From positions 1 to 60,590 of the forward strand of contig JBNLBB010000001.1 in assembly GCA_050302415.1 (NCBI GenBank): 60,590 nt of DNA. Reading direction: 5' to 3'. The notes beneath the pieces are model-generated. The model was not told where the DNA came from. It saw only the letters and a program-made list of their open reading frames with translations, and did no database searches. Below are positions 935 through 45,319 of the stretch, one piece after another. The position numbers were made by a program, and so were the translations under genes. Each line of letters begins with the position of its first letter. Position 1 is the first letter of the stretch. Source of the stretch: Gammaproteobacteria bacterium. Its GTDB lineage: Bacteria; Pseudomonadota; Gammaproteobacteria; JBNLBB01.

Positions 935-3274
935 TTAATGGGGCGCCTTAACCCTGTCTTCCAACCCATCCACGTCGGCATACCAGGAGGCGGAACGCCA
1001 GAATCCGTTCAACTTGTTGCGATAGGTATGCGCTGTGATATTTCCCTGCGGATGGAGCTCAAAACTGAGCAATCCGCCACCCGCAGTCGACCACTCGCGG
1101 GCACCGATTGCTCGGTAGCGCCCGACCACCTCCTGGTGCGGATGACCATAGCGGTTGTGGTGACGCATGGAATAGACCACGTGTTTTGGCGCGACAGCTG
1201 TCACAAAGCCCGGGCTGGATGAGCTTCGGCTGCCGTGGTGGGGTGCGATCAGCACATCGGACCTGAGACCCTGCCGCATCCGTCGTACCAGGACTGCCTC
1301 TTCGGGCTGTCCGATATCGGCCGTCAACAATGCGGACACGCGCCCCGTGGCAATCCTGACCACACACGACCCCTCGTTGCCTTCCGTTGGCCGTACGGGC
1401 GCCAGTACAGAAATCACAACCCCATCCAACCGCCACTCCTGCCCCGCCAAACAGGCCTCTACACCGTCAACAGCGGCCATGGTCGGATCCCCGGTGATGA
1501 TGTCACCTACACGCAACGCCCGTGACAGTGATTCCCATCCCCCTGAATGGTCGCTGTCGGCGTGGCTGATGATGGCCAGATCCAGGCGGCTGATACCGGC
1601 TTCGCGCAAAAAGGGGCGGACGATTGCCTCCCCGGCATCGAATCCACCGCGGTTCCGCGGACCGGCGTCGAACAGCAGCGCATGCCGATGAGTTTGCACC
1701 ACCACGGCGAGTCCCTGCCCCACATCGAGCACATGGAGCACCGCCTGGCCTTGGGGCAACCCGGATGGAGCCAGCAGACCAAGCGGCAGCAACAATATCA
1801 ACGCACCTGCCCGCATCGGCATGCCGTGCCCTGAAGCGAGCCACAGAAAGGCCACCAAAGCCATGCCCACTGCCCAAAGGGTCGGTGAGTGGTGCTCCCA
1901 CACCGCAAACGGGAGGTCGGCCAGCAGTCCAAGCAATTCCATTAACCAATCGAGACTGAAATCTGCGACCGCCAACGCGGCCCCACCCAGGTTCTCGGAC
2001 ACGGGAAACAGCAACAGCGCGGCCAGCAGTGGCGGTACCACGGTGAAACTCAACCAGGGAATTGCCAGGAGATTGGCGATGGGTGCAACCAGCGAAATCC
2101 GCCCAAATCCCCACAACACCAGGGGGGCAAGGGCCAGAAACAACCACCCCTGCAGCGTGACCACCTGGCGCAACGTGCCGGCCGGCCAGGCGTTGATAAC
2201 GTAGACAATGGCACCCACGGCCCCAAAGGAGAGCCAGAAACCGGGTTCCAGAACCGCTGTGGGCGTGGCCAACAGAACCGCCTGACAGGCCACCCCCAGC
2301 GTCCGCCAGGACCAGGCCGGGCGGCGGGCGATAACAGCTCCGCAGACCACCACCAGCATCACCAGCGCCCGCTGGGTCGGCAATGAAAAACCTGCAAGCC
2401 CGGAGTAGAGTAGTGCCATCACCGTGGCCACAACGGCTCCAACCACCTGCTTTGGCAATCGCCGACGCAACGGGGTGCACCACCAGATCAGATACCCCAG
2501 CAGATATCCCAGGGTCGCTGCATAGCCGATATGCAGTCCCGAAATTGCCATCAGATGATTGGTCCCGGTATCCAGGAACCGCCGCCACTCGATGTCCGTG
2601 ATCGCCGATCGGTCGCCAATCGCCAGCGCCGCCAACACCCCTTCCCTGACCAGTCCGTGCTGTTCACCACCCCTTGCCAGGGCAACCTGGTACCGGGTCC
2701 GTACCCGGTCCACCCAGCGGTTCAACCCGACCGCTGCCGCCATCCGTCGCCCCGTGCGCACGGAACCGGTGGCTTCAATCCCTTGAGCGTAGAGCCACCG
2801 CTCGTAGTCAAAACCACCGGGATTGGCATAGCCGCGGGGCGCGAACAGACGGACCGCGAGCTTCCAGCGTTCGCCGGGCACCAGGGTCAGCGGCTCATCG
2901 GTGTACCAGGAGAGACGGACCGTTCCGGCCCATCTCCCGCTATCACCATGCTGATCCATCGGTTCCGTCTCAATCAGGAACCGATAGCGCGCCCGGTCAT
3001 GCTCCACCAGGCCGATGATGGTTCCAGTGACCTGGAGTTCGGCGCCATCGAGCGTCGCGGGTAACTGAAACTGGCGGGCATGGGTGGCGTGAAAACCGGA
3101 CCAAGCGACGTAAAACAGCAGCCATGCGATCCATCGCAACTTCCTGTGTCGCCAAAATGGAACGGCTGCGGCTACAATAGACACTAACACCCACAAGGGC
3201 GGCAAAGTTGGCAGGAGGTACAGCAATGTACATCCGGCCAGTGAGGCAAACGTCCCTGACAGCACTCGATTCAC
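935..3274 (-). CDS. comEC: DNA internalisation competence protein ComEC/Rec2
   Basis: 779-aa polytopic membrane ORF with a C-terminal metallo-beta-lactamase motif (IISHADSDHSGG). Size and layout are typical of ComEC. Confidence 0.85.
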   Translation of the reverse strand: MNRVLSGTFASLAGCTLLYLLPTLPPLWVLVSIVAAAVPFWRHRKLRWIAWLLFYVAWSGFHATHARQFQLPATLDGAELQVTGTIIGLVEHDRARYRFLIETEPMDQHGDSGRWAGTVRLSWYTDEPLTLVPGERWKLAVRLFAPRGYANPGGFDYERWLYAQGIEATGSVRTGRRMAAAVGLNRWVDRVRTRYQVALARGGEQHGLVREGVLAALAIGDRSAITDIEWRRFLDTGTNHLMAISGLHIGYAATLGYLLGYLIWWCTPLRRRLPKQVVGAVVATVMALLYSGLAGFSLPTQRALVMLVVVCGAVIARRPAWSWRTLGVACQAVLLATPTAVLEPGFWLSFGAVGAIVYVINAWPAGTLRQVVTLQGWLFLALAPLVLWGFGRISLVAPIANLLAIPWLSFTVVPPLLAALLLFPVSENLGGAALAVADFSLDWLMELLGLLADLPFAVWEHHSPTLWAVGMALVAFLWLASGHGMPMRAGALILLLPLGLLAPSGLPQGQAVLHVLDVGQGLAVVVQTHRHALLFDAGPRNRGGFDAGEAIVRPFLREAGISRLDLAIISHADSDHSGGWESLSRALRVGDIITGDPTMAAVDGVEACLAGQEWRLDGVVISVLAPVRPTEGNEGSCVVRIATGRVSALLTADIGQPEEAVLVRRMRQGLRSDVLIAPHHGSRSSSSPGFVTAVAPKHVVYSMRHHNRYGHPHQEVVGRYRAIGAREWSTAGGGLLSFELHPQGNITAHTYRNKLNGFWRSASWYADVDGLEDRVKAPH

Positions 3275-3322
3275 CTCTTCCTGGAGGCTTACAGTTTGCT
3301 CGCTGTTGGCTGAATTTGTTTA

Positions 3323-3868
3323 ATGAAAAAAACCATCCGCCGTTACATGCCGGATCCGCATAGTGTACGGCACCACAAGCACCTGAAAATATTCGGTTCC
3401 CTGATCCACGATCCCAATCTGTGGCACCTCAACCGTCGCTCCGTGTCCGGCGCTTTTGCCGTCGGACTGTTCATGATGTATGTGCCGGTGCCGTTTCAGA
3501 TGCTGCTGGCGGCAGCGGCGGCGATTCCGTTTCGGGTGAACCTGCCCATCTCCGTGGGGCTGGTCTGGATCAGCAACCCCATCACCATGCCGCCCATGTT
3601 CTACCTGGCCTATCGGGTCGGCGCACTGGTCCTGGGCGTGCCCACCTCGACGTTTACCTTCGAGCTCTCCTTCGACTGGCTGCTCAGCGAACTGACCCAC
3701 ATCTGGGAGCCATTCCTCTTGGGCTGCCTTATATTCGCCATCCTCTGTTCAGTCGCGGGCTACATCACCATGCGCATTCTTTGGCGGCTGCACATTCTGC
3801 AGAATATCCGCCGGCGTCGCGAGGCACGCAAGGCCCGCCAGGATCTGCTCAACCAGCGTTCTGATTGA
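3323..3868 (+). CDS. DUF2062-family membrane protein
   Basis: 181-aa ORF. The N-terminus (...[33 protein letters not shown]...) matches the DUF2062 pattern. Its 3' end overlaps the convergent lolD by 20 nt. Confidence 0.7.
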
Positions 3869-4538
3869 GCGTTCCCGCCTCCAGCACCCAGGTGCGATCC
3901 ATGCGCGCGGCCAACACAGGGTTGTGGGTCACCACCACGAAACTGGTCCGGGTCGCCTGATTGAGCTCCAGCATCAGTTCATACACCTCTTCCGCAGTCC
4001 GGCTGTCCAGGTTCCCTGTCGGTTCGTCGGCAAGGACACAGGCCGGCTGAGTCACCAGAGCCCTGGCGATGGCGGCACGCTGGCGTTCGCCACCCGACAG
4101 TTCACCGGGCTTGTGCCGCACCCGCTGCGCAAGTCCCACACGATCCAGAATCCCGCGTGCGGTATCCATGGCGACCGCGGTCGTTTCCCGCCGGATCATC
4201 AGCGGCATCGCCACGTTTTCCAGTGCGGTAAATTCGGGCAACAGATGGTGGAACTGGTAGACAAATCCCAGGCGGCGATTGCGCAATTCACCGCGCGCCC
4301 GCTCTCCCAGGCGACCCAAATCATTCCCCTCCAGCAAGACTTCGCCGCTGCTGGGCGCGTCCAGCCCCCCCAGCAAATGCAGCAGGGTGCTCTTGCCTGA
4401 GCCTGAGGCACCCACGATGGCCACGCGCTCGCCGCTGTTGACCACCAGATTGAGGTCATTGAACACCTCGGTATGCAGGCCGCCCTCGGCGTAGGTTTTA
4501 CCCAATTGGCGAGCTTCGAGTACCACCTGATCACTCAT
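3849..4538 (-). CDS. lolD: Lipoprotein-releasing system ATP-binding protein LolD
   Basis: 229-aa ABC ATPase with Walker [10 protein letters not shown] and signature LSGGERQR. It overlaps the upstream FtsX-type permease gene by 8 nt. Confidence 0.85.
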
Positions 4539-5775
4539 AGCGCAACGCCTCTGCCGGATGGGTGCGCGAAGCGCGAAGTGCGGGATAGATGGTTGCCAGC
4601 ACGGACAGTATGAATGCGGTGATGCTCACCTTCAGCACATCATCCAGGTGCAGATCCGACGGCAGCTTGCTGATGTAGTAGATGTCTCCCGGCAGAAACT
4701 GAATGCCGAACAGACGTTCGACGGCAGGAACGATGGTCTCGACGTTGAGCGCCAGCCCGATACCGCCAAGCAATCCCAGCAGGGTGCCTACCACACCGAT
4801 CAGGGTGCCCTGCACCATGAACACAGACATCACGCTGCCCGGACTCATGCCCAGCGTTCTCAGGACCGCAATGTCCGGCTGTTTATCGCTGACCATGATG
4901 ACCAGGGTGGAGACAATATTGAATGCGGCCACGGCGACGATCAGCAGGATGATGATGAACATGACCCGCTTTTCGGTCTTCAACGCCTTAAAGAAGTTGG
5001 CATGCTGGCGGGTCCAGTCGGAGATGAAATACCGGCCACTCAGTGACTGTGCCAGTTCGCGCACCACATAGGGCGCCTGAAACAGATCATCGAGCTTCAG
5101 GCGCACGCCGGTAACACCCTCCATGCGCAACAGTCGCGCGGCATCCTCCATGTGCACCATGACCAATCCGCGGTCGTATTCGTACATCCCGACTTCGAAG
5201 ATACCCACCACCGTGAACCGTTTGAGTCGCGGCAGGATGCCGGCCGGTGTGGTGGCGGCGTTCGGTGTCACCACCGTCACTTTGTCGCCAAGCTGCACAC
5301 CCAGCATGTAGGCCAGTTCCTGGCCTAACACAATGCCGAATCCGCCCGATTTGAGATCTTCAAGTTTCCCGGCCACCATCTTGTCTGCGACTTCCGCCAC
5401 CTTGCGCTCTTCGCCGGGCAGGATGCCTCTCAGGATGGTGCCGCTGACCACGTCGCCGGCAGTGGCCATCACCTCCGCCTGTATGTACGGCGCCACTTCC
5501 TGGATGCGGCCGTGTTCCCTGGCGCGTACTGCGACACCCTGCCAATCATTGAGTGGACCACCGTAGGCGCTGATAGTGGCATGCGAAGTCATGCCGAGGA
5601 TTCGCTCGCGCATTTCCTTTTCGAAGCCGTTCATTACAGACAATACCGTGATCAACGCCGTCACCCCCACCGCGATACCCAGCATGGAGATGAGAGAGAT
5701 GAAGGAGATAAAGTGGTTGCGCCGTTTGGCACGCGTATAGCGCAACCCGATAAAGAGCTCGAGCGGTCGAATCAT
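4531..5775 (-). CDS. Lipoprotein-releasing system permease, LolC/LolE/LolF family
   Basis: 414-aa MacB/FtsX-type permease: TM1, a large periplasmic loop, then three C-terminal TMs. It is the only such permease next to lolD in this window. Confidence 0.8.
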
Positions 5776-7118: not shown

Positions 7119-8423
7119 TCAGCCGAAGATGTCATTGGTAATATTGTTGAACCAGCTGTGGGCGTAACCCACTTCGCGGCGGCGATGTTCCGGACTGGCA
7201 TCCATGGGGGTCAGACCACCGGCTCCGGCAACTCCGGCAATGGCATCCTTCTCCGCGTTATACCGGTAGACCGCAGCCACGGAAATACCCCAGTCGTCAC
7301 CGACGATGCTGTAGCAGGTATTGATGTAGGACGGCGTACCCGGTTCCATGCCGTTGAGCATTGCGACGATGGCCGCTGCGCACACCTTGGCCTGGGAATT
7401 GGCGGAATATCCGGACTTGGGCATGGCGGTGGCCACACTTGCGTCACCCAGTACATGGATATTGGGCACCACCTTGGATTCGAAGGTGGTTTTGTTCACA
7501 GCGCACCAGTCACTGTCACCGGTAAGGCCGGCACCAAAAGCGATGGCACCCGCCTTCTGCGCCGGGATGATGTTCAACACATCAGCCTTCACCACGTCGC
7601 CGAATTCGGTGGTTACCGTACGGGTCTTGGCGTCGACTTTGACCACCCGACTGTCCGGACCCGGACGCCACTCGATCAGGCTGTTCGGCGTGTCATATCC
7701 ATACAGTGCTTTCCAGCCCTGCATAAACAGGCCCTGTTTTGAGAACTTCTGCTTCGCATCCAGGATAAGCACCTTGGATTTGGGTTTGTGCTTCTGCAGG
7801 TAGCTAGCGATCAGACTCGCCCGCTCATAGGGCCCGGGAGGACAACGGAACGGGTTGGGGGGCGGTGCGATGACCACGGTACCGCCATCATGCATCGCTT
7901 CGAGTTGGGCCCGTAGGGTGGCGGTCTGCGGACCAGCCTGCCAGGCATGCGGGATATCCTTGGCCACATTGGCATCGAGCCCTTCCACGGTTTCCCACTT
8001 GAAGTCGATGCCGGGGGCAACCACGCAGCGGTCGTAGCTGAATTTGTTGCCACCGGAGGTGGTCACGGTCCGTGCATTGGCATCGATACCGGTTACCGAC
8101 TCCGACACCACGTTCACACCGTGCTTCTTCAGGCCCTCGTAACCGAATCCGATGCTGTCCAGTTTACGGTCACCACCGATCACCTCGTTGCTCATGAAAC
8201 AGGTGTGATACTTCGCCTTCGGCTCGATCACCGTAACGTCGATGGACGGATCGGCCATCTTCAAGTACTTGGCAGTTGTGGTACCACCAATACCGCCACC
8301 GACCACTACCACCTTTTTCTTCATGTGTTTGGCAGCAAAACTTAGGGACGGGAGACCGGCCAGACCCACAGCCCCGGCAGCGCCTGAGGCTTTCAGAAAA
8401 TTTCTTCGCGTAAAATTCGCCAT
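7119..8423 (-). CDS. fccB: Flavocytochrome c sulfide dehydrogenase, flavoprotein subunit (FccB/SoxF type)
   Basis: 434-aa ORF with a Tat signal ([26 protein letters not shown]) and FAD fingerprint [10 protein letters not shown]. It sits immediately downstream of a dihaem cytochrome c gene. Confidence 0.85.
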
Positions 8424-8442: not shown

Positions 8443-9114
8443 CTACTTCTGGCTGGCGTAGTAATGAGCCAGTGCTTTCAGGTCGTCGGCGCTGAGCTTC
8501 TTCATCTTCGCCGCCATTTTCTTGGGCATCTTGCGGTGTTTGGCCGCAAAATCGTCAAGGGAATTCTGGACATACGGCATCCACTGACCTGCCAACAGTC
8601 CGACATCATCTTCACTGCTGCGACCGCCATCTTCATGGCACTTTTCACAGTGATTGTCGTGCAACCGGCGCCCTTTTTTCACCAGCGCCGAATCAGTGCT
8701 CTGGGCATGACGGATAAACTGTTTGCCGGCAAAGTATTCGGCCATGCTGGCGATCTCTTCGTCGGTGTATCCCTTCGCAATCCGGCTCATAATGGTGCTG
8801 GATCGCGGCAGCGCTTCGAATTCATCATCCGACAGCGGCATTTGGCTGACCGCCTTGGTGATGGCTTCTTCGTCGTCACCATATTTGTAGGCCATCATCG
8901 CAGCGATGAAATAGCCGCGTGACAGACCTGCAATGCCGGGCGTGGCAGGTCCCTGGCTGTTGCCTCCCGTACCGTGACAACCGGCACAGGTGTTGGACAA
9001 CATTTCCGAAGTGGCACCGGCGGCGTTCGCTGGCGCCGACAGGCCGATCATCGCCGTACTGGCTACCGCCAGACCGGCCACAACAAGCGCTTGTCGCAGT
9101 CTCTTGTACCCCAT
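8443..9114 (-). CDS. fccA: Flavocytochrome c sulfide dehydrogenase, dihaem cytochrome c subunit
   Basis: Two CxxCH motifs (CAGCH, CEKCH) and a Sec signal (...GLSAPANA). I place the start at the ATG at 9114, which is preceded by AGGGAGAAG, not at the ORF-track start 9168. Confidence 0.8.
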
Positions 9115-9244
9115 GACTTCTCCCTCTTGTTCTACCTCATTACGAGGCATTGACATTTTTAACATCAATCCGGACAGGTTTTGGAATCCCCCTGGACCGA
9201 TAGGAATTGCCGCTGTGTGACAACGCGCGGCGCCGTTGATCTAG

Positions 9245-9260
9245 TGCAACCCGCGTGCCA
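9245..9260 (-). promoter_or_regulatory. Candidate sigma-54 (-24/-12) promoter for fccAB
   Basis: The minus strand reads TGGCACGCGGGTTGCA (TGGCAC-N5-TTGCA) with canonical GG/GC spacing, about 130 nt upstream of the fccA ATG. Confidence 0.6.
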
Positions 9261-9330
9261 CCCTAAGAGAACAATTTTTTTCCAATTTATTCATTTGGTT
9301 AATGACCTTGCTCCCTTTGAGCCATACTGC

Positions 9331-9376
9331 CACTTTCTGCCAAACCTGCCTTCCGCACATGAAATGGCAGAAAGTG
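9331..9376 (-). promoter_or_regulatory. Perfect 11-bp inverted repeat: candidate enhancer (UAS) for the sigma-54 promoter, or a hairpin after the napC-like gene
   Basis: CACTTTCTGCC-N24-GGCAGAAAGTG. It lies 70-115 nt upstream of the -24 element and 6 nt after the stop of the tetrahaem cytochrome gene. No U-tract follows. Confidence 0.45.
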
Positions 9377-9381
9377 TCGTG

Positions 9382-9972
9382 TCAGGAATTGTCCGCCACG
9401 GACTCCTCTGGCGGATCCGGGACTTCGTGTGCCACCCCTCTGTGGCACTCGACGCAGGTTTGATTCTCTTCCACCGCACCCTTGTGCTTGCGCCGGGCCA
9501 AGCGGGCCTGGGATTCAAGCTCCATCGCGGTGAAGGAGTGACAGCTGCGGCAGGTGGCGGAATCGGTCCGCTCCATGAACCGCCAGACGCGGTTGGCCAT
9601 CTCCCACCGTTTGGCGGCAAATTTCTCCGGGGTATCCACGGTACCTATCAGGGTGTGCCAGACATCCTTGACGGCAATGACTTTGGCCACCAGTTTCGGA
9701 CCGAATGCTTTGGGAACATGGCAGTCGGGGCAACCGGCTCGAACACCCGATTTATTCACATAATGCAGTGACTCCTGGTACTCGGGATACATCGTATCCT
9801 TCATTTCATGACAGGAGATGCAGAACTCCATCGTGTCTGTCACGCCGATGAGTTTGACCGCCCCGCCAAACAGCAGCAGCACCGTGACCCCACCCACCAC
9901 CAGAAGGCTACCGACGGACCACTTGCCACTGGGTGTTCTCAGCCCGTTCCAGAGGCACCGAAATATGTTCAT
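9382..9972 (-). CDS. NapC/NirT/CymA-family membrane-anchored tetrahaem cytochrome c (quinol dehydrogenase type)
   Basis: 196-aa ORF with an N-terminal TM anchor and four CxxCH motifs (CISCH, CPDCH, CRSCH, CVECH), in the spacing and size typical of NapC/NirT. Confidence 0.8.
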   Translation of the reverse strand: MNIFRCLWNGLRTPSGKWSVGSLLVVGGVTVLLLFGGAVKLIGVTDTMEFCISCHEMKDTMYPEYQESLHYVNKSGVRAGCPDCHVPKAFGPKLVAKVIAVKDVWHTLIGTVDTPEKFAAKRWEMANRVWRFMERTDSATCRSCHSFTAMELESQARLARRKHKGAVEENQTCVECHRGVAHEVPDPPEESVADNS

Positions 9973-10173
9973 CTACTCCCCCATCGAAACCATATTTTTT
10001 GGACCTCTTGCTCTCCACCCTGACAATCTTCTTGCAGGGTGACTGCGGAGCTGAAGACCGGTGCATTACCCTACGCCTGTTGCACCAAATTTTCAGCACA
10101 GAGTACAGGTCCGGCGCGGTCGATGTTATATTTACTTAGGGATATCCCGAATAAGCGTGGTGAGGAGAGATTA

Positions 10174-13565: not shown

Positions 13566-13649
13566 CAGTTGCAGCACCTTGGCCGTGCGTTGTACAACAC
13601 CTTCTGCTCCACCCTGCCCATATCCACGACTTCACCTGAAACGAGATTC

Positions 13650-14561
13650 ATGCAAAAGATACCCGATCAGATTTCCGTTGCCCTGGTACAGCAGGCCAGT
13701 CGGCAGACTACCGAAGACAACCTGAACCACACGGTTGATCAAATCCGTCAGGCCGCCCGGTCCGGGGCGCAGTTGGTTGTACTGCAGGAGTTGCACTGTT
13801 CCCCCTACTTCTGTCAGGTCCAGGACACCGCCAATTTTGACCTGGCGGAATCGATCCCGGGACCCACCACCGGGCGGCTCTCCCAGGTTGCGGCCGAATC
13901 CGGAGTGGTGCTGGTGGCATCCCTGTTCGAACGTCGGGCCAGGGGGCTCTATCACAACACGGCTGTGGTCATTGAACGGGACGGATCCCTGGCAGGCATC
14001 TACCGAAAGATGCATATCCCTCAGGATCCCGGGTTTGAGGAGAAATTCTATTTCACCCCCGGTGATCTGGGATTCCATCCCATCCGCACCAGTATCGGCA
14101 CGCTGGGCGTGCTCGTCTGCTGGGATCAATGGTATCCGGAGGCCGCCCGACTGATGGCCCTGCGCGGCGCCGACCTGCTGATCTACCCCACCGCCATCGG
14201 CTGGGACCCGGCTGACGGCAATGAGGAACAGCAGCGTCAGCTGGACGCCTGGGTGACCGTGCAACGGGGGCACGCCGTGGCCAATGGCATCCACGTCCTC
14301 ACCTGCAACCGAACCGGCACGGAGGCTGCCGCCCGTGGCACCGGGGCAATCCGGTTTTGGGGCAACAGTTTCGTGACCGGCCCGCAGGGAGAGCTGCTGG
14401 CCGTAGCGCCCCAGGAAGAAGAGACCATTCTGCGTGCCACGATCAGTCTGCAACGCGCCGAGTCGGTGCGACGGATCTGGCCATTTTTCCGGGACCGCAG
14501 AATTGACGCCTACGGTGACATTGTCAGGCGCCATGTCGACGATACGCCTCAGGGCACCTGA
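13650..14561 (+). CDS. aguB: N-carbamoylputrescine amidase (CN-hydrolase family)
   Basis: Start moved to the ATG at 13650 (MQKIPDQISVALVQQ...). Nitrilase-superfamily motifs are present (VLQELH, YRKMHIP, LVCWDQWYPE with the catalytic Cys). Confidence 0.85.
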   Translation: MQKIPDQISVALVQQASRQTTEDNLNHTVDQIRQAARSGAQLVVLQELHCSPYFCQVQDTANFDLAESIPGPTTGRLSQVAAESGVVLVASLFERRARGLYHNTAVVIERDGSLAGIYRKMHIPQDPGFEEKFYFTPGDLGFHPIRTSIGTLGVLVCWDQWYPEAARLMALRGADLLIYPTAIGWDPADGNEEQQRQLDAWVTVQRGHAVANGIHVLTCNRTGTEAAARGTGAIRFWGNSFVTGPQGELLAVAPQEEETILRATISLQRAESVRRIWPFFRDRRIDAYGDIVRRHVDDTPQGT

Positions 14562-14576
14562 ACAGGGAGATATCTG

Positions 14577-15257
14577 ATGTCCATAGAAGGGAACCCTGCC
14601 TGGCTGAACGCCTATCCGCAGTTGGCACGGATTACCGATTCTGCCTGGCAGGAACTGATGCAGAAGGCGCAGTTGCGGAATATTCCGGCCGGGACAGTGC
14701 TTTTCTACAGCGGCGATCGGGCAGCCCAGTATGTACTGGTACTTGAAGGCTCCATCAAGGTTCAAAAAATCACCGAAAATGGACGGGAAATCGTGCTCTA
14801 CCGGGTTGAGCCCGGAGAAACCTGTGTCCTGACCACCAACAGCCTGCTGGCCATGGACACCTATCCAGCAGAAGGCATTGCAGAGACGGCTGTGAAGGCG
14901 GTTGTTCTTCCGAGCAGCGCCTTCCAACAGGCGATGGCTGACTCGCCCTCGTTTCGCCAGTTCGTGTTTTCGGTCTACGGCCGGCGCCTGTCCGATCTCA
15001 TTCTGCTCGTCGAAGAGGTGGCGTTTGGGCGCATGGATCAACGCCTCGCCCAGTTTCTCCTGCACCAGGCCGAGGAAGGCGAGGTGTTGCAACTGTCGCA
15101 CCAGGAACTGGCGGCAGAGCTGGGCACTGCCCGGGAGGTGGTCAGCCGGTTGCTCAAGGAGTTTGAGCGTCGCGGCTGGGTCAGTCTCGCCCGGCGTCAG
15201 ATTACCGTTGTCGACAAGCCGGCCATGCGGTTGGGCACCGAATCCACGGTACTGTGA
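14577..15257 (+). CDS. Crp/Fnr-family transcriptional regulator
   Basis: 226-aa ORF with an N-terminal cNMP-binding-like beta-barrel and a C-terminal HTH (ELAAELGTAREVVSRLLKEFERRGWV). Confidence 0.85.
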   Translation: MSIEGNPAWLNAYPQLARITDSAWQELMQKAQLRNIPAGTVLFYSGDRAAQYVLVLEGSIKVQKITENGREIVLYRVEPGETCVLTTNSLLAMDTYPAEGIAETAVKAVVLPSSAFQQAMADSPSFRQFVFSVYGRRLSDLILLVEEVAFGRMDQRLAQFLLHQAEEGEVLQLSHQELAAELGTAREVVSRLLKEFERRGWVSLARRQITVVDKPAMRLGTESTVL

Positions 15258-15268
15258 TTTTGTTACTG

Positions 15269-15283
15269 TTGACCAGGCGTCAA
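15269..15283 (+). promoter_or_regulatory. Perfect palindrome TTGAC-N5-GTCAA, a candidate operator for the adjacent Crp/Fnr regulator
   Basis: TTGACCAGGCGTCAA sits between the crp/fnr-like stop (15257) and the DUF2892 ATG (15342). The half-sites resemble FNR/CRP-family TTGA/TCAA arms, but the spacer is one nt longer. Confidence 0.4.
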
Positions 15284-15341
15284 TTTGCTGGAATAGCTGC
15301 CACAACCACTTCTTTGTACCCGAATTAGCGAGGAGAAAGTC

Positions 15342-15548
15342 ATGCAGAACGTCGGTGGTATTGATCGTGTGATTCGTATTGTGGCCGGTCTGGTGCTGAT
15401 CGCACTGGTATTCTTCGGACCGCAGACCCCGTGGGGTTGGCTCGGCCTGATTCCCCTGGCCACCGGTTTGATCAGCTGGTGCCCGGCCTATACCCTGATC
15501 GGACTGAACACCAAAGGCAAACAGGAGACCGCTGGCGCCGCCAGCTGA
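15342..15548 (+). CDS. DUF2892 (YgaP C-terminal-like) small membrane protein
   Basis: 68-aa ORF preceded by GAGGAGAAAG. The sequence GGIDRVIRIVAGLVLIAL...PLATGLISWCPAY is the DUF2892 pattern. Confidence 0.75.
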   Translation: MQNVGGIDRVIRIVAGLVLIALVFFGPQTPWGWLGLIPLATGLISWCPAYTLIGLNTKGKQETAGAAS

Positions 15549-15574
15549 GTTGCACGCTGCCTGGGAACGGACAA

Positions 15575-15598
15575 GGCCCGGCACTGCCGGGCCTTTTT
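15575..15598 (+). terminator. Rho-independent terminator after the DUF2892 gene
   Basis: 8-bp GC stem GGCCCGGC / GCCGGGCC with a 3-nt loop, followed by TTTTT. Confidence 0.85.
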
Positions 15599-15747
15599 CA
15601 TTTCCTGGCCCCACCATCGCTCCTTGGCCTCATTCCGTCTAAGCCCTATACTTTTGGGGTCGCTTGCACACAATAATGTCAAGAATAAGAATGGGTAGCC
15701 GCCGCAATCTGTTGCGCGCACCCCCGCCACAGAGGGTCATCCACACC

Positions 15748-17946
15748 ATGAACACGCTGCACTCCACCACCAGGCGTGGCCACACCATTCGCGTGGTCTG
15801 GGGACCACAGCGGTTTTACCTGTCCATTGGCTGGAAAACGCTCATCGCCTTTTTCCTGGTTGTCTTTGTGCCCATGCTTGGCCTGATGCAAATCACAGGG
15901 AGCACCATCCGCGATGGCATGGAATCCGAAGCACTCAAATCCCTGGCTGTCAGTATGCGCGGGTCGTGGAGCATCTATTTTGAGCGCATCGACCGGTTGA
16001 CCAACGACTTTGAACTCTCCGCGACCGAACCCGGTCTCGCCGCGGCCATACAGTCCAGAAATGAAGATGCGTTGAGCACCCTGCTCAACCGGATATCCAC
16101 CCATCTTCCCTATGCCGATGTCCTGCTGCTGGTTGACCGGGACCGCAAAGTGATGGCCAGACGCTCTGGTCCGGCCGGCGACCGGGTGTACGTCAATAAC
16201 CTGATTACCCGGGCGGTGGAACGGGGACAGGCGGTCACCAGTTCGGAATTGCTGCCACGTGATCTCTTCCTCAATGAAGACCCGCTGCGCTACGGCGGTT
16301 TGAGCCAGTCAATCCTCGCGCAGGTATCGGTTGTGCCCATCAAGGATGGAGACGAGGTGACTGGCGCATTTCTGGGCCTCATTCTGCTCAATGGCAACGC
16401 CTGGCTCTCCAATTCGGTACACGACAACCTGAGTGTCGATGCCGCCATCTTCAGCTCCGTCGTCCAGGAGAGTCAGGTGATTTCGACGGCCTACCGGGTC
16501 AGCAATATCTGGGCGGAAGGGGTGATGGCGCCGGCCCCGCTGAATGCGGCGATCAAACGCCGCGAATCGTTCAGCGGTCATATCCGGGTCAACGACATCC
16601 CCAGTCTGGTGATCGCCGAACCCATCATGAACCACCAGAAACAGCCGATCGGCGCCCTGGCCCTGGGTGTGCGCGACGAACATATCGAGCTGCTGATCCA
16701 GCGGAACAAGAGCAACGTCTACTTGTTCATAGCCATTGGCATCGGGCTGTCGCTGATCATTGCCTACCTGGCCTATCGCGACACCGTCACCCCGATCCGC
16801 GCCATGGTGGAGGCCATGGATGCCTTCGCCAACAATCAACTGGGCGTGCGCACCGAAATCCGCACCAAGGACGAGTTCGAGCAGTTGGGCGATGGCTTCA
16901 ACCGGATGGCCGAATCGGTGGAAGAGCACCAGCAACGCATGGAGAAGTTCAATACCCTGTCGAGTCTGCTCATCTCCACCCTCAACCCACGGCAATTGCT
17001 GCAGAAGACCCTGGACAAGGTGGTGGAGCTCACCAAAGGCCGAGTCGGCGTCATCTATCTGCATGACAAGAACTCGGGCACCCTGCAGCCATTCGTCACC
17101 AACGGAATCGACATCAAAAAACTGCCGGCGCTGGATATCGGCGAAGGACTGCCCGGCCAGGCCGCAGAACAGAAACGCCTGTTGCGGATCGACGGCGTCG
17201 ACAGCGATACCCGCATTGTGATCAATTTCGGCATCGTCACTGCGGTACCCAAGGAGATTCTGGCGGCCCCTCTCGTCTTCAAGGATGAGCTGCTGGGCGT
17301 CATGCTGTTGGGCAGCACCCAGCAATTGCACGAAGACGAGCTTCCCGCCATTGAGTACATGACCAACCAGATTGCGATTGTGCTGGAAAACGCGCTGACG
17401 CACGAAAAGCTGGAGCTCTACTCCGTCACCGATGCGCTCACCGGGCTCTACAATCGCCGTTATCTGAGCCAGCGCCTGGATCACGAATTCTCCAAGGCGC
17501 AGCGCTACGGCTACGACCTGTCACTGATGATTCTGGACCTGGATCACTTCAAGAATATCAACGACAAGTTTGGGCATCTGGCCGGCGATTCGGTACTCAT
17601 TTCCGTGGCCCGGCTGCTGCGCAACTGTTTCCGGGAGACTGATCTGGTGGGACGCTACGGTGGTGAGGAGTTTTTTGTTATTCTGCCCCACACCAACCAG
17701 GAGCAGGCCAAGTATTCGGCTGAAAAACTGAGATCGCAACTGGCCGAACTGGCGATTGATGCCATCGGCGGTGGCGTCGTGACCACCTCAATCGGCGTCG
17801 CGAGTTTTCCGGAATCGGGCATTCACGTATTGGATGAACTGGTGCGCCGGGCCGACAACGCACTCTACGCAGCGAAGGAACAGGGGCGTAATTGTGTGGT
17901 GCAGGCCCAGGCACCGAGTCAGTCGACGGAACTCTCGTCTGCCTGA
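15748..17946 (+). CDS. Membrane sensor diguanylate cyclase (periplasmic sensor, HAMP, GAF, GGDEF)
   Basis: Two TMs flank a roughly 290-aa periplasmic domain, followed by a HAMP region, a GAF-like region and a GGDEF domain with an intact GGEEF and an RxxD I-site (RETD). The start is uncertain (15664-15748). Confidence 0.85.
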   Translation: MNTLHSTTRRGHTIRVVWGPQRFYLSIGWKTLIAFFLVVFVPMLGLMQITGSTIRDGMESEALKSLAVSMRGSWSIYFERIDRLTNDFELSATEPGLAAAIQSRNEDALSTLLNRISTHLPYADVLLLVDRDRKVMARRSGPAGDRVYVNNLITRAVERGQAVTSSELLPRDLFLNEDPLRYGGLSQSILAQVSVVPIKDGDEVTGAFLGLILLNGNAWLSNSVHDNLSVDAAIFSSVVQESQVISTAYRVSNIWAEGVMAPAPLNAAIKRRESFSGHIRVNDIPSLVIAEPIMNHQKQPIGALALGVRDEHIELLIQRNKSNVYLFIAIGIGLSLIIAYLAYRDTVTPIRAMVEAMDAFANNQLGVRTEIRTKDEFEQLGDGFNRMAESVEEHQQRMEKFNTLSSLLISTLNPRQLLQKTLDKVVELTKGRVGVIYLHDKNSGTLQPFVTNGIDIKKLPALDIGEGLPGQAAEQKRLLRIDGVDSDTRIVINFGIVTAVPKEILAAPLVFKDELLGVMLLGSTQQLHEDELPAIEYMTNQIAIVLENALTHEKLELYSVTDALTGLYNRRYLSQRLDHEFSKAQRYGYDLSLMILDLDHFKNINDKFGHLAGDSVLISVARLLRNCFRETDLVGRYGGEEFFVILPHTNQEQAKYSAEKLRSQLAELAIDAIGGGVVTTSIGVASFPESGIHVLDELVRRADNALYAAKEQGRNCVVQAQAPSQSTELSSA

Positions 17947-19310
17947 TTCCGCAATTTCTGCACGTAGCGGTAGAGCGTCCGCTCACTGATACCCAATTCG
18001 TGGGCAGTGCGGGCACGATGGCCTTTGTGCCGCGCCAGCGCCTGAAGAATCTGCTGTTCAGACTGGCGTGCACCGCGCCGGTGGATGAGATTGCGCTCCA
18101 CGCCGATTCCGGTTTTGACCATCGGTGCCTCCGCCTCATTGGGCTCAAACACCAAGTGGGTCACGTCCATGGCATCGCCCCCGGCAAGGATTACCGCGCG
18201 TTCCACGACATTGCGTAATTCGCGGACATTTCCCGGATAGTCATAACCCAACAGCTGTTCAATCAGATAGGGCGCCAGCGGCAGATGGCGGTCACCATCG
18301 TCCATGCGCGCAATGAAGTGTTCCGCCAGGGCCGGAATGTCATCCACCCTGTCACGCAGCGGCGGCACCTCCACGGGAAAAGCGGAGAGCCGGTAGTAGA
18401 GATCCTGCCGGAACTCCTTGCGGCGCGAGAGCGCGGCCAGATCCCGGTGGGTGGCGGCCACGATCCGCACGTTCACGCGGATGTATTCCGTGCCACCGAT
18501 GCGGCGGATGGTTCCGGATTCCAGGACCCGCAGCAGTTTGGTCTGGGCAGCCAGGGGCATTTCCCCGATTTCGTCGATAAACAGGGTCCCCTCGTTGGCC
18601 GCTTCAATCAGCCCCTTCTTGCGGCCGGCGGCGCCGGTAAATGCCCCCTTCTCGTACCCAAACAGCTCGCTCTCAATCAAATTGTGATCCAGTGAGGCGC
18701 AGTCGACGATCATGAACGGACCGTTGGACCGCCGGGAGTACTGGTGGAGATAGTTGGCCATGCACTCCTTGCCCACTCCACTCTCGCCCAACAGCAGCAC
18801 CGTGGTGGAGGTGGGCGCCACCCGCTGGAGCAGACTGATCATGCGGCGAAAGGCATGTGAGCGCCCGACCAGCTGCGGATCTTCGCCATCCGGTGCCTGA
18901 ATGGCATTGATGTACTCCCCCATATACATCACCTCGCCGGTGGCACCCAGCAGCGGATTGGCCTGTATCTGAACGTATTCGGGTTTGTCTTCCTTGTCGT
19001 AGTGGACGTGGATCAGCTGCACCGGTTGTCCTTTGGTGAACACCGCCTCCAGGGGGCAATGTTCGCCATGGTGATGGCAGGGAGATTCCGAATGGTGGCT
19101 TACCTCGTAGCAGTGGCGTCCGACCACGTCTTCGCCGGAGACCTGGTAGCGCTCCTTGTAGCTGCGGTTGGCGGCGATGATCCGGTATTCGCGGTCTATG
19201 ACCACGAAAGGATCAGGCATGATGTTGATGATTTGCTCGCAGGATGGCGCCTGCAGATGTGAACTCGTCACTGTCCCCTCCCCCGAAAATCCGTTCATAT
19301 GATACGTCAT
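17919..19310 (-). CDS. Sigma-54-dependent transcriptional activator (bEBP) with a Cys/His-rich PAS-like sensor domain
   Basis: Walker A GESGVGKE, the GAFTGA loop and a C-terminal Fis-type HTH are present. The sensor region contains RHCYEVSHHSESPCHHHGEHCPLE. I prefer the ATG at 19310 (AGGGAA upstream); the ORF track starts at 19376. Confidence 0.85.
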   Translation of the reverse strand: MTYHMNGFSGEGTVTSSHLQAPSCEQIINIMPDPFVVIDREYRIIAANRSYKERYQVSGEDVVGRHCYEVSHHSESPCHHHGEHCPLEAVFTKGQPVQLIHVHYDKEDKPEYVQIQANPLLGATGEVMYMGEYINAIQAPDGEDPQLVGRSHAFRRMISLLQRVAPTSTTVLLLGESGVGKECMANYLHQYSRRSNGPFMIVDCASLDHNLIESELFGYEKGAFTGAAGRKKGLIEAANEGTLFIDEIGEMPLAAQTKLLRVLESGTIRRIGGTEYIRVNVRIVAATHRDLAALSRRKEFRQDLYYRLSAFPVEVPPLRDRVDDIPALAEHFIARMDDGDRHLPLAPYLIEQLLGYDYPGNVRELRNVVERAVILAGGDAMDVTHLVFEPNEAEAPMVKTGIGVERNLIHRRGARQSEQQILQALARHKGHRARTAHELGISERTLYRYVQKLRNQADESSVD

Positions 19311-19614
19311 GACATTCCCTGTCACGACTGCCATCATGCCGTCTATCCCCGCTGCTGTCAAAATGGCTAACTGCATGGCAGTAAAGCGATTTGCCGCGGT
19401 CGGAACCCCTCCTTTCCACGGGTCGTCAGCCTGGTTTCACGGACCGCTGGAGGCTTGCTGCGCTGCTCCGTGCCAGCCCGGTCGGTAATAGACAGGACAT
19501 GCCGGTTGTGGATAATGGTCACCGTTTCAGCGTCCGGGCCAATCGACTTCCGGCTCCCAAGCCACTCTGTCACGGCCATCAATCCGAATCACAAGAATTT
19601 CGCGGAGGCTCCGC

Positions 19615-21024
19615 TTGATACGCAAGATCGCTCTACCAGGCCTGGCTACTCTCCTCTTTCCCGGAATCGCATCGGCGAGCGAAGGGGCAATCAACCTCAC
19701 CCAGAGCAGTATCGGCTATCTTTCGCTGCTGATATTTGCCATTGCCTATGCGCTGGTGATGGCGGAGGAGTTCACCCACCTGCGCAAGTCCAAGCCGGTG
19801 ATTCTGGCGGCGGGTATCATCTGGGCCATGATCGCCGCCTATTACGCGGCGCAGGGCGATGCGCACGCCGCCGAAATCGCGGTGCGCCACAACATTCTTG
19901 AATACGCCGAACTGATGCTGTTCCTGCTGGTGGCGATGACCTATATCAACAGCATCGACGAACGCAACGTCTTTGACGTGCTGCGGGTCTGGCTGATCAA
20001 CCGGGGATTCGGACTGCGCAAACTCTTCTGGATGACCGGTTTGCTGGCCTTTTTCATCTCCCCGGTCGCCGACAATCTCACCACAGCCCTCTTGATGTGC
20101 GCCGTAGTGCTAGCGGTGGGGGCCGGCAATCCCAAGTTCATTGCGCTCGGATGCATCAATATTGTGGTTGCCGCCAACGCGGGGGGCGCCTTCAGTCCCT
20201 TCGGCGACATCACCACGCTGATGGTCTGGCAGAAAGGGATCATCGGTTTCTGGACCTTCTTCCTGTTGTTTGTCCCCTCCGTGGTGAATTGGCTGGTACC
20301 GGCAGCCATCATGCACTTTGCGGTACCCGACATGATGCCGCACAACACCAACGAAGTGGTGCACCTGCGCCGGGGTGCGCGGCGGATCATCGCGCTCTTT
20401 CTCTGCACCATCGCCACCGCGGTGAGCTTTCACAATTTTCTACACCTGCCGCCGGTGCTCGGCATGATGACCGGCCTGGCCTATCTGCAGATATTCGGCT
20501 TCTACCTGAAGAAAACCCGCCACTTGGACGCACCGGGCGATACCGTCACCGAAGAGGAGCACAGCGACATCGGCGAGGTGGTCTCCTTCGATATTTTCAA
20601 CCAGGTCGCTCGCGCCGAGTGGGACACCCTGCTCTTCTTCTACGGCGTGGTGGTCTGCGTGGGCGGGCTTGGATTCATCGGCTATCTGGAGCTGGCATCA
20701 CAGTTCATGTACACCGATCTGGGACCGACCGCCGCCAACGTGCTGGTTGGCGTCCTGTCGGCCATCGTGGACAACATTCCTGTGATGTTTGCCGTGCTGA
20801 CCATGAATCCGGACATGTCCCAGGGACAGTGGCTGCTGGTGACCCTGACGGCGGGGGTTGGCGGCAGCATGTTGTCCATTGGCTCCGCCGCCGGCGTGGC
20901 GCTCATGGGCATGGCGCGCGGCTACTACACGTTCTTCAGCCATCTGCGCTGGCTGCCCGCCATTGCACTGGGTTATGCCCTGAGCGTGCTGGTCCACCTG
21001 TGGATCAATTCAGCGCTCTTCTGA
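19615..21024 (+). CDS. nhaD: NhaD-type Na+/H+ antiporter (ArsB/NhaD permease superfamily)
   Basis: 469-aa polytopic ORF (TTG start in the track), NhaD-like throughout (e.g. ...SPVADNLTTALLM..., ...SAIVDNIPVM...). Confidence 0.8.
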   Translation: MIRKIALPGLATLLFPGIASASEGAINLTQSSIGYLSLLIFAIAYALVMAEEFTHLRKSKPVILAAGIIWAMIAAYYAAQGDAHAAEIAVRHNILEYAELMLFLLVAMTYINSIDERNVFDVLRVWLINRGFGLRKLFWMTGLLAFFISPVADNLTTALLMCAVVLAVGAGNPKFIALGCINIVVAANAGGAFSPFGDITTLMVWQKGIIGFWTFFLLFVPSVVNWLVPAAIMHFAVPDMMPHNTNEVVHLRRGARRIIALFLCTIATAVSFHNFLHLPPVLGMMTGLAYLQIFGFYLKKTRHLDAPGDTVTEEEHSDIGEVVSFDIFNQVARAEWDTLLFFYGVVVCVGGLGFIGYLELASQFMYTDLGPTAANVLVGVLSAIVDNIPVMFAVLTMNPDMSQGQWLLVTLTAGVGGSMLSIGSAAGVALMGMARGYYTFFSHLRWLPAIALGYALSVLVHLWINSALF

Positions 21025-25018: not shown

Positions 25019-25098
25019 GTACTCAGTTATTGTACTCCTCTGATCTGCCTGTTGGCCCTGCCGTCCCTCCCCCCTCAAATCGGCAGGGCCATTTTTTT
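25019..25098 (+). ncRNA. Candidate small RNA of about 80 nt (promoter-to-terminator unit)
   Basis: It is bounded by the candidate promoter above and the hairpin plus U-run at 25054-25098. It contains CUCCUC and a 17-nt C/U-rich terminator loop (UCCCUCCCCCCUCAAAU). No ORF is present. Confidence 0.3.
25054..25098 (+). terminator. Rho-independent terminator (10-bp stem, large C-rich loop, U7)
   Basis: GGCCCTGCCG-N17-CGGCAGGGCC followed by ATTTTTTT. It abuts the stop codon of the convergent pentapeptide gene. Confidence 0.6.
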
Positions 25099-41057: not shown

Positions 41058-41086
41058 GGGTGGCAGCCCTGCGGCGGCTGCCACCC
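41058..41086 (+). other. Strong GC hairpin without a U-tract between the lipoprotein gene and the ABC-2 ATPase gene
   Basis: Perfect 11-bp stem GGGTGGCAGCC / GGCTGCCACCC with a 7-nt loop. The following sequence is acaccttcc. Confidence 0.5.
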
Positions 41087-44019: not shown

Positions 44020-44757
44020 ATGGACAGCAATCTCTTCTGGTTCCTCACCTCCATCGCCCTGGGTACCTACATTCAGACCACCAGCGGATTTGCGCTCGGT
44101 CTGATTGTCATGGGTGCGGTCAACCTGTTCCACCTGGTTTCGGTCGGCGAGGCCGCCATCGTCATCAGCACCGTGGCCCTGATCAACAATGTGCTGGCAC
44201 TTCGCCACCGGACTCACTTCATTGACAGGCGGCTGCTCTGGCTGCTTGGGGCGGCACTGACACCTGCCATTGTGGCGGGTGTCTGGTTGCTCGGGTACCT
44301 CACTGACCATCACGCGACGTCCATTCGCCAGGTGCTGGGTTGGTTTATTTTGATCGGCGGTGGTTTACTGATCCTCAATCCATCGCCACGCAGATCACCG
44401 GCCGGTGCAGGAACGGGACTGCTTGCCGGGGCGCTCTGCGGTCTGTTTGGCGGCCTGTTCAGCACCGGGGGACCACCAGTGGTCTACCATCTCTACCGCG
44501 AACCACTCTCCATCGACCAGATACGCGCCACACTCTTCGCCGTATTCATGCTCAGCACCGTGGTCAGAACCGTGGTGGTCGGCGTGGACGGCCAGATCGA
44601 TACGTCGGTGGCCCTGCTCTGCCTCTACAGTCTGCCCGTGGTGTTTATAACCACGCTGCTGGCCCAGCGCTGGCACCCGCCACTCTCCGACCGCGCCTAC
44701 CGGCGCGCGGCGTATGTGTTGCTCGTGCTGCTCAGCCTGCCGCTGATTCTTGGATAG
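44020..44757 (+). CDS. TauE/SafE-family (DUF81) anion exporter
   Basis: 245-aa, roughly 7-8 TM ORF with TauE-like N-terminal (GTYIQTTSGFALGLI) and internal-repeat (GLFGGLFSTGGPP) motifs. Confidence 0.75.
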   Translation: MDSNLFWFLTSIALGTYIQTTSGFALGLIVMGAVNLFHLVSVGEAAIVISTVALINNVLALRHRTHFIDRRLLWLLGAALTPAIVAGVWLLGYLTDHHATSIRQVLGWFILIGGGLLILNPSPRRSPAGAGTGLLAGALCGLFGGLFSTGGPPVVYHLYREPLSIDQIRATLFAVFMLSTVVRTVVVGVDGQIDTSVALLCLYSLPVVFITTLLAQRWHPPLSDRAYRRAAYVLLVLLSLPLILG

Positions 44758-44764
44758 ACGGCCA

Positions 44765-45262: not shown

Positions 45263-45319
45263 CCAAATATTTCCGCCCCCCCTTGGCCACGACGCAGGCA
45301 ATGCGGTTAACATGCGCGC

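Follow-up and report, generated by a model that had tools for sequence, protein, structure and literature searches.

The genes for flavocytochrome c sulfide dehydrogenase (FCSD), fccA and fccB, are preceded by what is very probably a genuine sigma-54 promoter in a 60.6-kb stretch of DNA from an uncultured gammaproteobacterium (contig JBNLBB010000001.1, positions 1 to 60,590; the whole of the stretch that was analysed is called the window below). The evidence supports a reading in which fccAB would be driven from this enhancer-dependent promoter, and we think it fairly likely that the activator would be a FisR-type sensor of sulfane sulfur. A candidate, a FisR-like enhancer-binding protein (EBP), is encoded in the window. 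The promoter features and genes concerned are these:

9260-9245, minus strand: candidate sigma-54 -24/-12 element TGGCACGCGGGTTGCA, with the -24 G at 9258 and the -12 C at 9246
9232-9236, minus strand: predicted transcription start, near 9234, placed by the usual 11-12 nt from the -12 GC to +1
8443-9114, minus strand: fccA, dihaem cytochrome c subunit of FCSD (Pfam Cytochrom_C and Cytochrome_CBB3; two CxxCH motifs)
7119-8423, minus strand: fccB, flavoprotein subunit of FCSD (Pfam FCSD_central, 7e-53; FCSD-flav_bind, 3e-29; TAT_signal)
9382-9972, minus strand: napC, NapC/NirT-family tetrahaem cytochrome (Pfam Cytochrom_NNT, 2e-65; four CxxCH motifs)

The minus-strand order is napC, a 267-nt intergenic region, fccA and fccB, with the sigma-54 promoter downstream of napC in the window. 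An earlier reading of this DNA made from its letters alone, hereafter the sequence-only reading, had named fccA and fccB, and these identities were borne out by the Pfam domains, the CxxCH motifs and the TAT signal; FccA homologues also carry the JGI name "sulfide dehydrogenase cytochrome subunit".

The sigma-54 element and its conservation

The sequence-only reading had placed a near-consensus sigma-54 element about 130 nt upstream of the fccA ATG, and it was correct in both respects. The minus strand carries TGGCAC at 9260-9255 and TTGCA at 9249-9245, the gap between the GG (9259-9258) and the GC (9247-9246) is exactly 10 nt, and TGGCACGCGGGTTGCA agrees with the extended consensus TGGCACG-N4-TTGCW at 12 of the 12 specified bases. 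The motif is intergenic, has the same orientation as fccA and ends 130 nt before the ATG (9114-9112). The pattern TGGCACG-N4-TTGCA occurs once in the window, where 0.01 occurrences would be expected from shuffles. A shorter 11-base pattern with one mismatch was observed 8 times against 7.1 expected and is not rarer than chance, which means that the significance of the site depends on its match being perfect.

When the window was scanned with a sigma-54 weight matrix, a check proposed along with the original claim, the site ranked top with 17.7 bits, the maximum of the matrix given the composition of its N4 spacer. The second-best site in the window scored 14.6 bits and is intragenic, as are all others above 12 bits. 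The lack of a convincing -35/-10 pair, also part of the sequence-only reading, held as well, no sigma-70-type pair being found in 9000-9500. A second sigma-54 promoter on the upstream side of the window napC was considered and rejected, as no site there reached 6 bits.

The nearest FccB and the nearest FccA are each 72% identical to the window protein. The nearest FccA/FccB relatives come from loci with strong -24/-12 sites 150-175 nt upstream of fccA in surrounding DNA that is otherwise unalignable. In loci L001, L002 and L005 the site reads TGGCACGATGC(G/T)TGC(T/C), lies 166-173 nt upstream of fccA and scores 15.5-15.9 bits; in L084-L087 it reads TGGCATG(G/A)CAGTTGCA, lies 154 nt upstream and scores 17.4-18.0 bits; L173 has TGGCATGCACCTTGCA (17.4 bits) and L176 has TGGCGTGACTTTTGCT (13.9 bits). 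The closest FccA relative of all, P0002 (72%), is found on 2-kb contigs with 123-136 nt of upstream DNA, too short for the expected promoter position. Because conservation is limited to short motifs, MAFFT put the promoters out of register when the intergenic region was aligned with L001, L002 and L005, and a motif-anchored comparison was used instead. In seven gammaproteobacterial loci (L021, L031, L035, L059, L073, L075 and L076) the site lies upstream of napC, where that gene heads a cluster of napC, an ankyrin protein gene and fccAB. In the 80 fccB loci, sites that score 13 bits or more occur at 0.32 per kb on the coding strand in the 350 nt upstream of fccA or napC and at 0.019 per kb elsewhere, a 16-fold enrichment (binomial p = 9e-14). 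Comparison across relatives, which the sequence-only reading had asked for, thus gave a divided answer: the -24/-12 core is conserved in the nearest relatives but the inverted repeat upstream of it, described below, is not.

From the predicted start, the fccA leader would be about 120 nt long. Leaders of 120-160 nt are common to the related promoters. The predicted leader of the window (9115-9234) holds two isolated TGTCA boxes, near 9222 and near 9155. A riboswitch or other leader RNA was considered and rejected, there being no Rfam match at E <= 1. The fccA leaders of L001 (about 1390-1430), L002, L005 and L173 (about 9945-9975) have in common a GC-rich element, GGGGGCAGGCGGC..GGACGCACGCCTCC, that lies about 40 nt before the ribosome-binding site and might form a structure in the 5' UTR; the leader in the window has no such element.

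Upstream boxes and the FisR-like protein

Between the promoter and the end of napC, the intergenic DNA contains an inverted repeat, an array of short boxes and an AT-rich spacer, with positions relative to the predicted start given where they apply:

9376-9365, minus strand: left arm of a perfect inverted repeat, CACTTTCTGCCA, 12 bp, holding a CTGCCA half-site at about -131 to -136
9342-9331, minus strand: right arm of the same repeat, TGGCAGAAAGTG, 12 bp, overlapping the second and third GGCAG repeats
9327-9350, minus strand: triple direct array GGCAG-N4-GGCAG-N5-GGCAG, at about -93 to -116, putative core of a FisR-type upstream activating sequence (UAS)
9380-9384, minus strand: single TGACA box overlapping the napC stop codon
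9270-9305, minus strand: AT-rich spacer, about 78% A+T in a window of about 60% G+C

The inverted repeat announced by the sequence-only reading is real and perfect, but it had been described with 11-bp arms and an N24 loop where we measured 12-bp arms and N22 (CACTTTCTGCCA-N22-TGGCAGAAAGTG). It starts 5 nt past the napC stop codon. Three separate perfect inverted repeats whose arms reach 11 bp or more and whose loops do not exceed 40 nt occur in the window, against about 1.2 eleven-mer events expected; the remaining two, at 25053-25091 and 41058-41086, both lie at gene ends and resemble terminator stems. As RNA the repeat upstream of fccA would form a hairpin of -30.2 kcal/mol over an 86-nt stretch (z = -2.7) with no U-tract behind it, and it may also affect the 3' end of napC as a second role. 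A canonical intrinsic terminator at this place was rejected, as the U-tract is missing and the terminator scan did not report one.

The repeat had been proposed to act as the enhancer. It does form part of a conserved box family, but the conserved units are boxes of 5-6 nt and not the long arms. The DNA upstream of the candidate promoters showed clusters of TGTCA/TGACA pentamers, and clusters of at least four such pentamers in 70 nt were found in 9 of the 80 loci, in all cases 60-150 nt upstream of these sigma-54 sites and nowhere else. In an unbiased hexamer count, ATGACA/TGTCAT was 34-fold enriched in the UAS regions and present at 13 of the 14 promoters (p = 1e-39), and CTGCCA/TGGCAG was 9-fold enriched and present in 8 of the 14 UAS regions (p = 7e-10); CTGACA/TGTCAG was 40-fold enriched in the same set. 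The commonest distance between successive boxes in the 14 regions is 9-10 nt. Conservation thus lies in the TGGCAG/CTGCCA and TGTCAT/ATGACA half-sites. The window UAS, TGACA-N9-CTGCCA-N14-GGCAG-N4-GGCAG-N5-GGCAG, consists mainly of the TGGCAG/CTGCCA box type, and the UAS of L084 mixes both types (TGTCAgCTGCCAtgccaacTGACAgccaatttGGCAGtaatGGCAGattaTGTCA). A layout of CTGCC followed by GGCAG repeats is common to the window, Cupriavidus and L084. Pairs of GGCAG alone were excluded as evidence, being frequent in GC-rich coding DNA and especially opposite CxxCH codons.

The AT-rich tract that had been described between the repeat and the promoter is present at 9305-9270. It carries an A7 run (9281-9275) and, at about -50 to -60, a one-mismatch site for integration host factor (IHF), AATGAATAAATTG (9295-9283); this match is weak evidence because of the mismatch and the AT-rich surroundings. 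Similar AT-rich spacers are found in L059, L073 and L035, and the spacer in the window probably bends the DNA between enhancer and promoter. Overall, the proposed layout of enhancer, spacer and -24/-12 element is upheld by the conserved core, the 16-fold enrichment, the conserved box family and the presence in the window of an EBP with a GAFTGA motif. Two further features belong to this protein:

17919-19310, minus strand: FisR-like sigma-54 EBP with a PAS_4 sensor, an AAA+ domain with GAFTGA and HTH_8; the sole EBP in the window
19305-19385, unstranded: box cluster (TGACA/TGTCA/GGCAG/CTGCC) where the EBP gene has its 5' end, a putative autoregulatory site

The EBP gave Pfam matches to PAS_4 (5e-15), Sigma54_activat (9e-67), AAA_lid_14 and HTH_8, and its GAFTGA is at residue 222. 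The longest open reading frame (ORF) starts at 19376, but its first 22 codons are overlapped by the box cluster and it resembles the orthologues only from near residue 44 onwards; translation more likely begins at M23 (19310) or M27 (19298). The sensor domain carries C-x10-C-x6-C in GRHCYEVSHHSESPCHHHGEHC, namely C67, C78 and C85. When this domain was searched by tblastn against plasmid and chromid records, the best match was on the Cupriavidus metallidurans CH34 chromid, in a gene for a PAS_4-sigma-54 EBP that is divergent from genes for a metallo-beta-lactamase (persulfide dioxygenase-type), an SQR-type flavoprotein and an MFS protein and has a TauE gene downstream. The two EBPs are 44% identical over 425 aa (BLASTP, E = 2e-120), and C67, C78 and C85 of the window protein align with C53, C64 and C71 of the CH34 protein, numbered from the CH34 ATG at L088 4944. 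The CH34 protein, which stands in this comparison in place of FisR from strain JMP134, is taken for a FisR orthologue solely on account of its divergent pdo-sqr-MFS neighbours and the positions of its cysteines, and NCBIfam has no FisR model. Judged by its homology to the CH34 EBP, the aligned cysteines and neighbours that match the FisR arrangement, the window EBP is probably a FisR-family protein, and it keeps the sensing cysteines.

A protein search with the sensor domain alone returned five orthologues. The cysteines are conserved in the EBPs of L084, L075 and L176 and in P0122 and P0124, and the recognition helix GISERTLYRY is identical among the EBP orthologues. A metagenome scan with the whole EBP gave mostly generic AAA+ matches, with fccAB, sqr or pdo in none of its 80 loci; the sensor domain was common only to L089 and L090 in that scan, at 30-36% identity.

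Several observations link this EBP to the fccA promoter. Orthologues that are 58-64% identical lie near napC-fccAB in three other lineages, at 3.2 kb in L084 and 2.9 kb in L176 and adjoining fccB in L075, so that with the window there are four lineages with FisR-like EBPs 0.1-9 kb from napC-fccAB. The L176 locus is syntenic with the window from PAD_porph through ComEC, and L084, where the regulator is 64% identical, is syntenic with the window too. The Cupriavidus fisR-pdo intergenic region holds CTGCCaacttGGCAGtgttGGCAGaacttGGCAGaatGGC, that is, CTGCC-N5-GGCAGtgttGGCAGaacttGGCAG, which the window array GGCAGgtttGGCAGaaagtGGCAGtatGGC matches at 25 of 30 positions, the best of all DNA compared (the next reached 22 of 30). 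Triple GGCAG arrays, of which 0.023 would be expected per window, were found among about 0.9 Mb of loci in the window and at just two other sites, both in Cupriavidus, one upstream of pdo and one upstream of tauE; each of these two lies about 100 nt from a sigma-54-like site.

Three or more TGTCA/TGACA pentamers cluster nowhere in the window but at 19305-19385. In L084, L169, L171 and L176 the orthologous EBP genes are preceded by equivalent clusters, and boxes in this position are what one would expect if the factor were autoregulated. A gene for a Pyr_redox_2 (SQR-like) protein of 423-424 aa directly precedes the EBP gene in L084 (2235-3506), L169 (6667-7941), L170 (2477-3751) and L171 (859-2130), which fits a sulfide-related role; the best NCBIfam match of the L084 protein is the type III SQR model, at E = 4e-27 and below the family cutoff. 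The window has no such Pyr_redox_2 gene, only fccB giving a weak match, and neither sqr nor pdo was found in it. Taken together, the FisR-like EBP (17919-19310) is probably the activator of this promoter.

In the window the EBP gene is flanked by a gene for a dCache-HAMP-GAF-GGDEF diguanylate cyclase (15664-17946, plus strand) and one for a CitMHS-family transporter (19615-21024, plus strand), neither of which is preceded by a sigma-54 site above 10 bits. In L010, the region 1830-5141 directly upstream of fccA contains a 633-aa ORF resembling a sensor kinase and a 444-aa NtrC-type EBP, and the fccA gene has a 17.9-bit sigma-54 site, TGGCACTTAAATTGCT, without TGTCA boxes; in this locus sigma-54 control of fccAB seems to run by another route, through a two-component system. 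In Pseudoalteromonas xiamenensis (L172, NZ_CP099918.1, 202889-213248), a FisR-like EBP with 31% identity in the sensor domain is divergent from cydP-cydAB-cydX, the operon for cytochrome bd oxidase; this oxidase is regarded as insensitive to sulfide, and its operon could be another sulfide-related target of the FisR family.

Proposed mechanism and alternatives

We propose that sigma-54 (RpoN) RNA polymerase would sit at 9260-9245 as a closed complex until remodelled by an AAA+ activator. The FisR-like EBP would assemble about 90-140 nt upstream of the start, on the TGGCAG/CTGCCA boxes that form the inverted repeat (about -93 to -136), and the AT-rich spacer at 9305-9270, with its A-tract and IHF-like site, would loop the DNA and join enhancer and promoter. 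By analogy with FisR, sulfane sulfur derived from sulfide (polysulfide or persulfide) may cross-link C67 and C78, which correspond to C53 and C64 of FisR, and the cross-link may release the AAA+ domain for ATPase-driven formation of the open complex. Transcription would then begin near 9234 with a leader of about 120 nt, and FCSD would be produced only in the presence of reduced sulfur. The analysis shows the promoter and box sequences with their rarity and their specific, conserved placement in related loci, as well as the homology of the EBP, its kept cysteines and its repeated linkage to napC-fccAB; that the promoter is used, that the EBP binds the boxes and what the signal is are things we infer from these sequences, and the all-or-none behaviour of fccAB, which the sequence-only reading had raised, would follow from the general mode of action of sigma-54. 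In a wider form of the proposal, uncultured gammaproteobacterial sulfur oxidisers would have a conserved regulon in which a FisR-type sensor, acting on TGTCAT/TGGCAG arrays through sigma-54, gates the periplasmic, energy-conserving FccAB, the NapC/NirT cytochrome and its own gene; we consider this wider form evenly balanced between right and wrong.

A number of observations weigh against sigma-54 transcription of fccAB under a FisR-type sensor. The sigma-54 site is lineage-restricted, being missing from L174, L175 and most beta- and alphaproteobacterial loci, and the weight matrix behind all bit scores given here is an approximation that we built from the published consensus. The rpoN gene is absent from the window and its presence in the genome is deduced from the EBP; the same genome surely encodes further EBPs. 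The EBP gene lies 8.8 kb from the fccA promoter with unrelated genes between, neither adjacent to fccAB nor divergent from it, and in L010 and L073 the sigma-54 promoters of fccAB or napC are paired with EBPs of other types, the PAS-EBP of L073 being without the cysteines. The window UAS is atypical in having one TGACA box where most relatives have four to six, the 12-bp inverted repeat as such is specific to the window, and the orientation of the CTGCC/GGCAG array to the promoter is opposite to that at both Cupriavidus targets. That the array is a FisR box is likewise something we infer from its likeness to the Cupriavidus DNA.

In a first alternative, the promoter is real but served by a different EBP encoded elsewhere, for example of the NtrC type as in L010, and the repeat acts mainly as a hairpin in RNA, where it would stabilise or terminate the napC transcript. 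The position of the repeat 5 nt past the napC stop codon, its stable predicted fold and its lack of conservation in relatives all agree with such a hairpin, and the distance of the window EBP from the promoter, the putative histidine kinase and NtrC-like EBP that directly precede the box-less 17.9-bit promoter of L010 and the cysteine-less EBP of L073 agree with another activator. However, the hairpin lacks a U-tract and was passed over by the terminator scan, and the GGCAG array is common to Cupriavidus intergenic regions between divergent genes, where no 3' end exists for a hairpin to act upon. The same boxes also precede the EBP genes themselves, and FisR-like orthologues recur beside napC-fccAB in four lineages. 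We therefore consider this explanation unlikely, though not so unlikely as the two that follow.

It is improbable that the consensus match is a chance or vestigial one, with fccAB expression due instead to read-through out of napC or to a sigma-70 promoter that went unrecognised. Extrapolating from the window shuffles, a genome of 3-4 Mb would contain about one perfect 12-base match by chance; napC and fccAB lie on the same strand 267 nt apart with no canonical terminator found between them, and many fccAB loci have no sigma-54 site at all. What speaks for a functional site is that it is intergenic and correctly oriented, that it is kept at a comparable distance in all of the nearest relatives despite their diverged surrounding DNA, that a conserved, position-specific box cluster accompanies it and that no sigma-70 consensus was found in the interval. 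The perfect pair of 12-bp palindromic arms is also typical of dimeric helix-turn-helix regulators, and the repeat might then be the operator of a dimeric repressor or activator, such as a persulfide sensor of the ArsR/BigR/SqrR type, acting with or instead of the EBP; repressors that sense persulfides are well documented for sulfide-oxidation genes (PMC7315123, PMC9995734). But a repressor operator would not usually have a spacer of 22 nt or lie about 95-140 nt upstream of the start, no gene for an ArsR/BigR/SqrR-type regulator was found next to the cluster, and the half-sites are repeated directly at helical spacing, as would suit an oligomeric EBP. An operator of this kind seems to us very improbable, and activation by the FisR-like EBP is the reading that we carry forward.

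Gene context and known sulfur regulators

In 62 of the 80 loci a napC-family gene is found no more than 6 kb from fccAB, mostly on the same strand and immediately upstream or downstream, and in many loci the sigma-54 promoter is followed first by napC. The NapC/NirT cytochrome would accordingly seem to be a conserved functional partner of FCSD, possibly its link to the quinone pool. The protein encoded between napC and fccA in L075 (4354-5328, plus strand) is a 324-aa ankyrin-repeat protein (Pfam Ank_2, 1e-52). Gaps of 1-1.5 kb between napC and fccA also occur in L003, L004, L021, L031, L035, L059, L078 and others and probably hold the same gene; only L010 showed an ORF of matching length beside napC, and the ankyrin gene is absent from the window. 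Elsewhere in the window, the ORFs at 13632-15617 (minus strand, 661 aa) and 44732-46183 (minus strand, 483 aa) gave no Pfam match at E <= 0.001.

The physiological role of FCSD and the conditions under which it is expressed are poorly defined compared with those of SQR. A sensor-gated sigma-54 promoter, together with a box motif and a candidate regulator, would give a testable handle on when cells make FCSD, and the motif links FCSD to a NapC/NirT cytochrome that would be co-regulated with it in many lineages. If the proposal is true, FCSD is a sulfane-sulfur-induced enzyme in these bacteria and the FisR family reaches from heterotroph detoxification to lithotrophic energy metabolism, extending the FisR paradigm from the sqr/pdo detoxification operons to a periplasmic respiratory enzyme. 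The TGTCAT/TGGCAG arrays and the -24/-12 element could then be used to annotate sulfide-responsive regulons in metagenome-assembled genomes.

Searches of the open literature turned up no report of a link between fccAB or flavocytochrome c and sigma-54, RpoN or FisR. The sequence-only reading was right to call RpoN control unusual for these genes, but the novelty that it implied was too large, as such control is already known for sqr/pdo (FisR) and sox (TspSR). What would be new is fccAB as the target, and a recurrent conserved regulon, for a known family of regulators; the mechanism is not new.

FisR is described, in the part of PMC7315123 that cites Li et al. 2017, as activating sigma-54 transcription of the sulfide-oxidising genes sqr and pdo. 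On sensing sulfane sulfur it forms a Cys53-Cys64 tetrasulfide (PMC9495516). It is presented for Cupriavidus pinatubonensis JMP134 and Acinetobacter baumannii in the portions of PMC7315123 and PMC9495516 that cite Li et al. 2017 (Mol Microbiol 105:373), and its gene is described as divergent from pdo-sqr-type genes (PMC7315123), the arrangement seen in CH34. The window EBP has the same order of domains, with a PAS-like sensor, an AAA+ domain with GAFTGA and a Fis-type HTH, and it has three sensor cysteines with identical spacing, the 44% identity being to the C. metallidurans orthologue. Its putative target is likewise a sigma-54 promoter before sulfide-oxidation genes, with a similar CTGCC/triple-GGCAG array about 100 nt upstream. 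The differences lie in the target, which would be the periplasmic fccAB (joined in relatives by the NapC/NirT cytochrome) whereas the targets published for FisR comprise the cytoplasmic-membrane SQR, persulfide dioxygenase and TauE; in the regulator gene, which is neither adjacent to nor divergent from its target; in the host, an uncultured gammaproteobacterium related to sulfur oxidisers and not a sulfide-detoxifying heterotroph; and in the boxes, which are of the TGTCAT type in most relatives of the window and form an array that in the window itself is inverted relative to the promoter.

The second system to be compared is the two-component system TspS/TspR of Acidithiobacillus caldus, which depends on sigma-54 and switches on the sox-II cluster by way of the UAS TGTCCCAAATGGGACA (PMC6335251). 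There too a sigma-54 promoter and a UAS control a periplasmic sulfur-oxidation system in a chemolithotroph, and the UAS half-sites begin with TGTC. TspR, however, is a phosphorylated response regulator with a partner kinase and not a one-component cysteine sensor, and the substrate (thiosulfate), the target genes and the palindrome are different. The classical enhancer-dependent sigma-54 promoters with IHF-assisted looping include nifH with NifA, glnAp2 with NtrC and Pu with XylR. With these the fccA promoter shares the GG-N10-GC core, an enhancer at about -100 to -140, an AT-rich spacer with an IHF-like site and the lack of a -35/-10 pair. It differs from them in the function that would be regulated and in that a role for IHF in the window is suggested by a one-mismatch match and an A-tract only.

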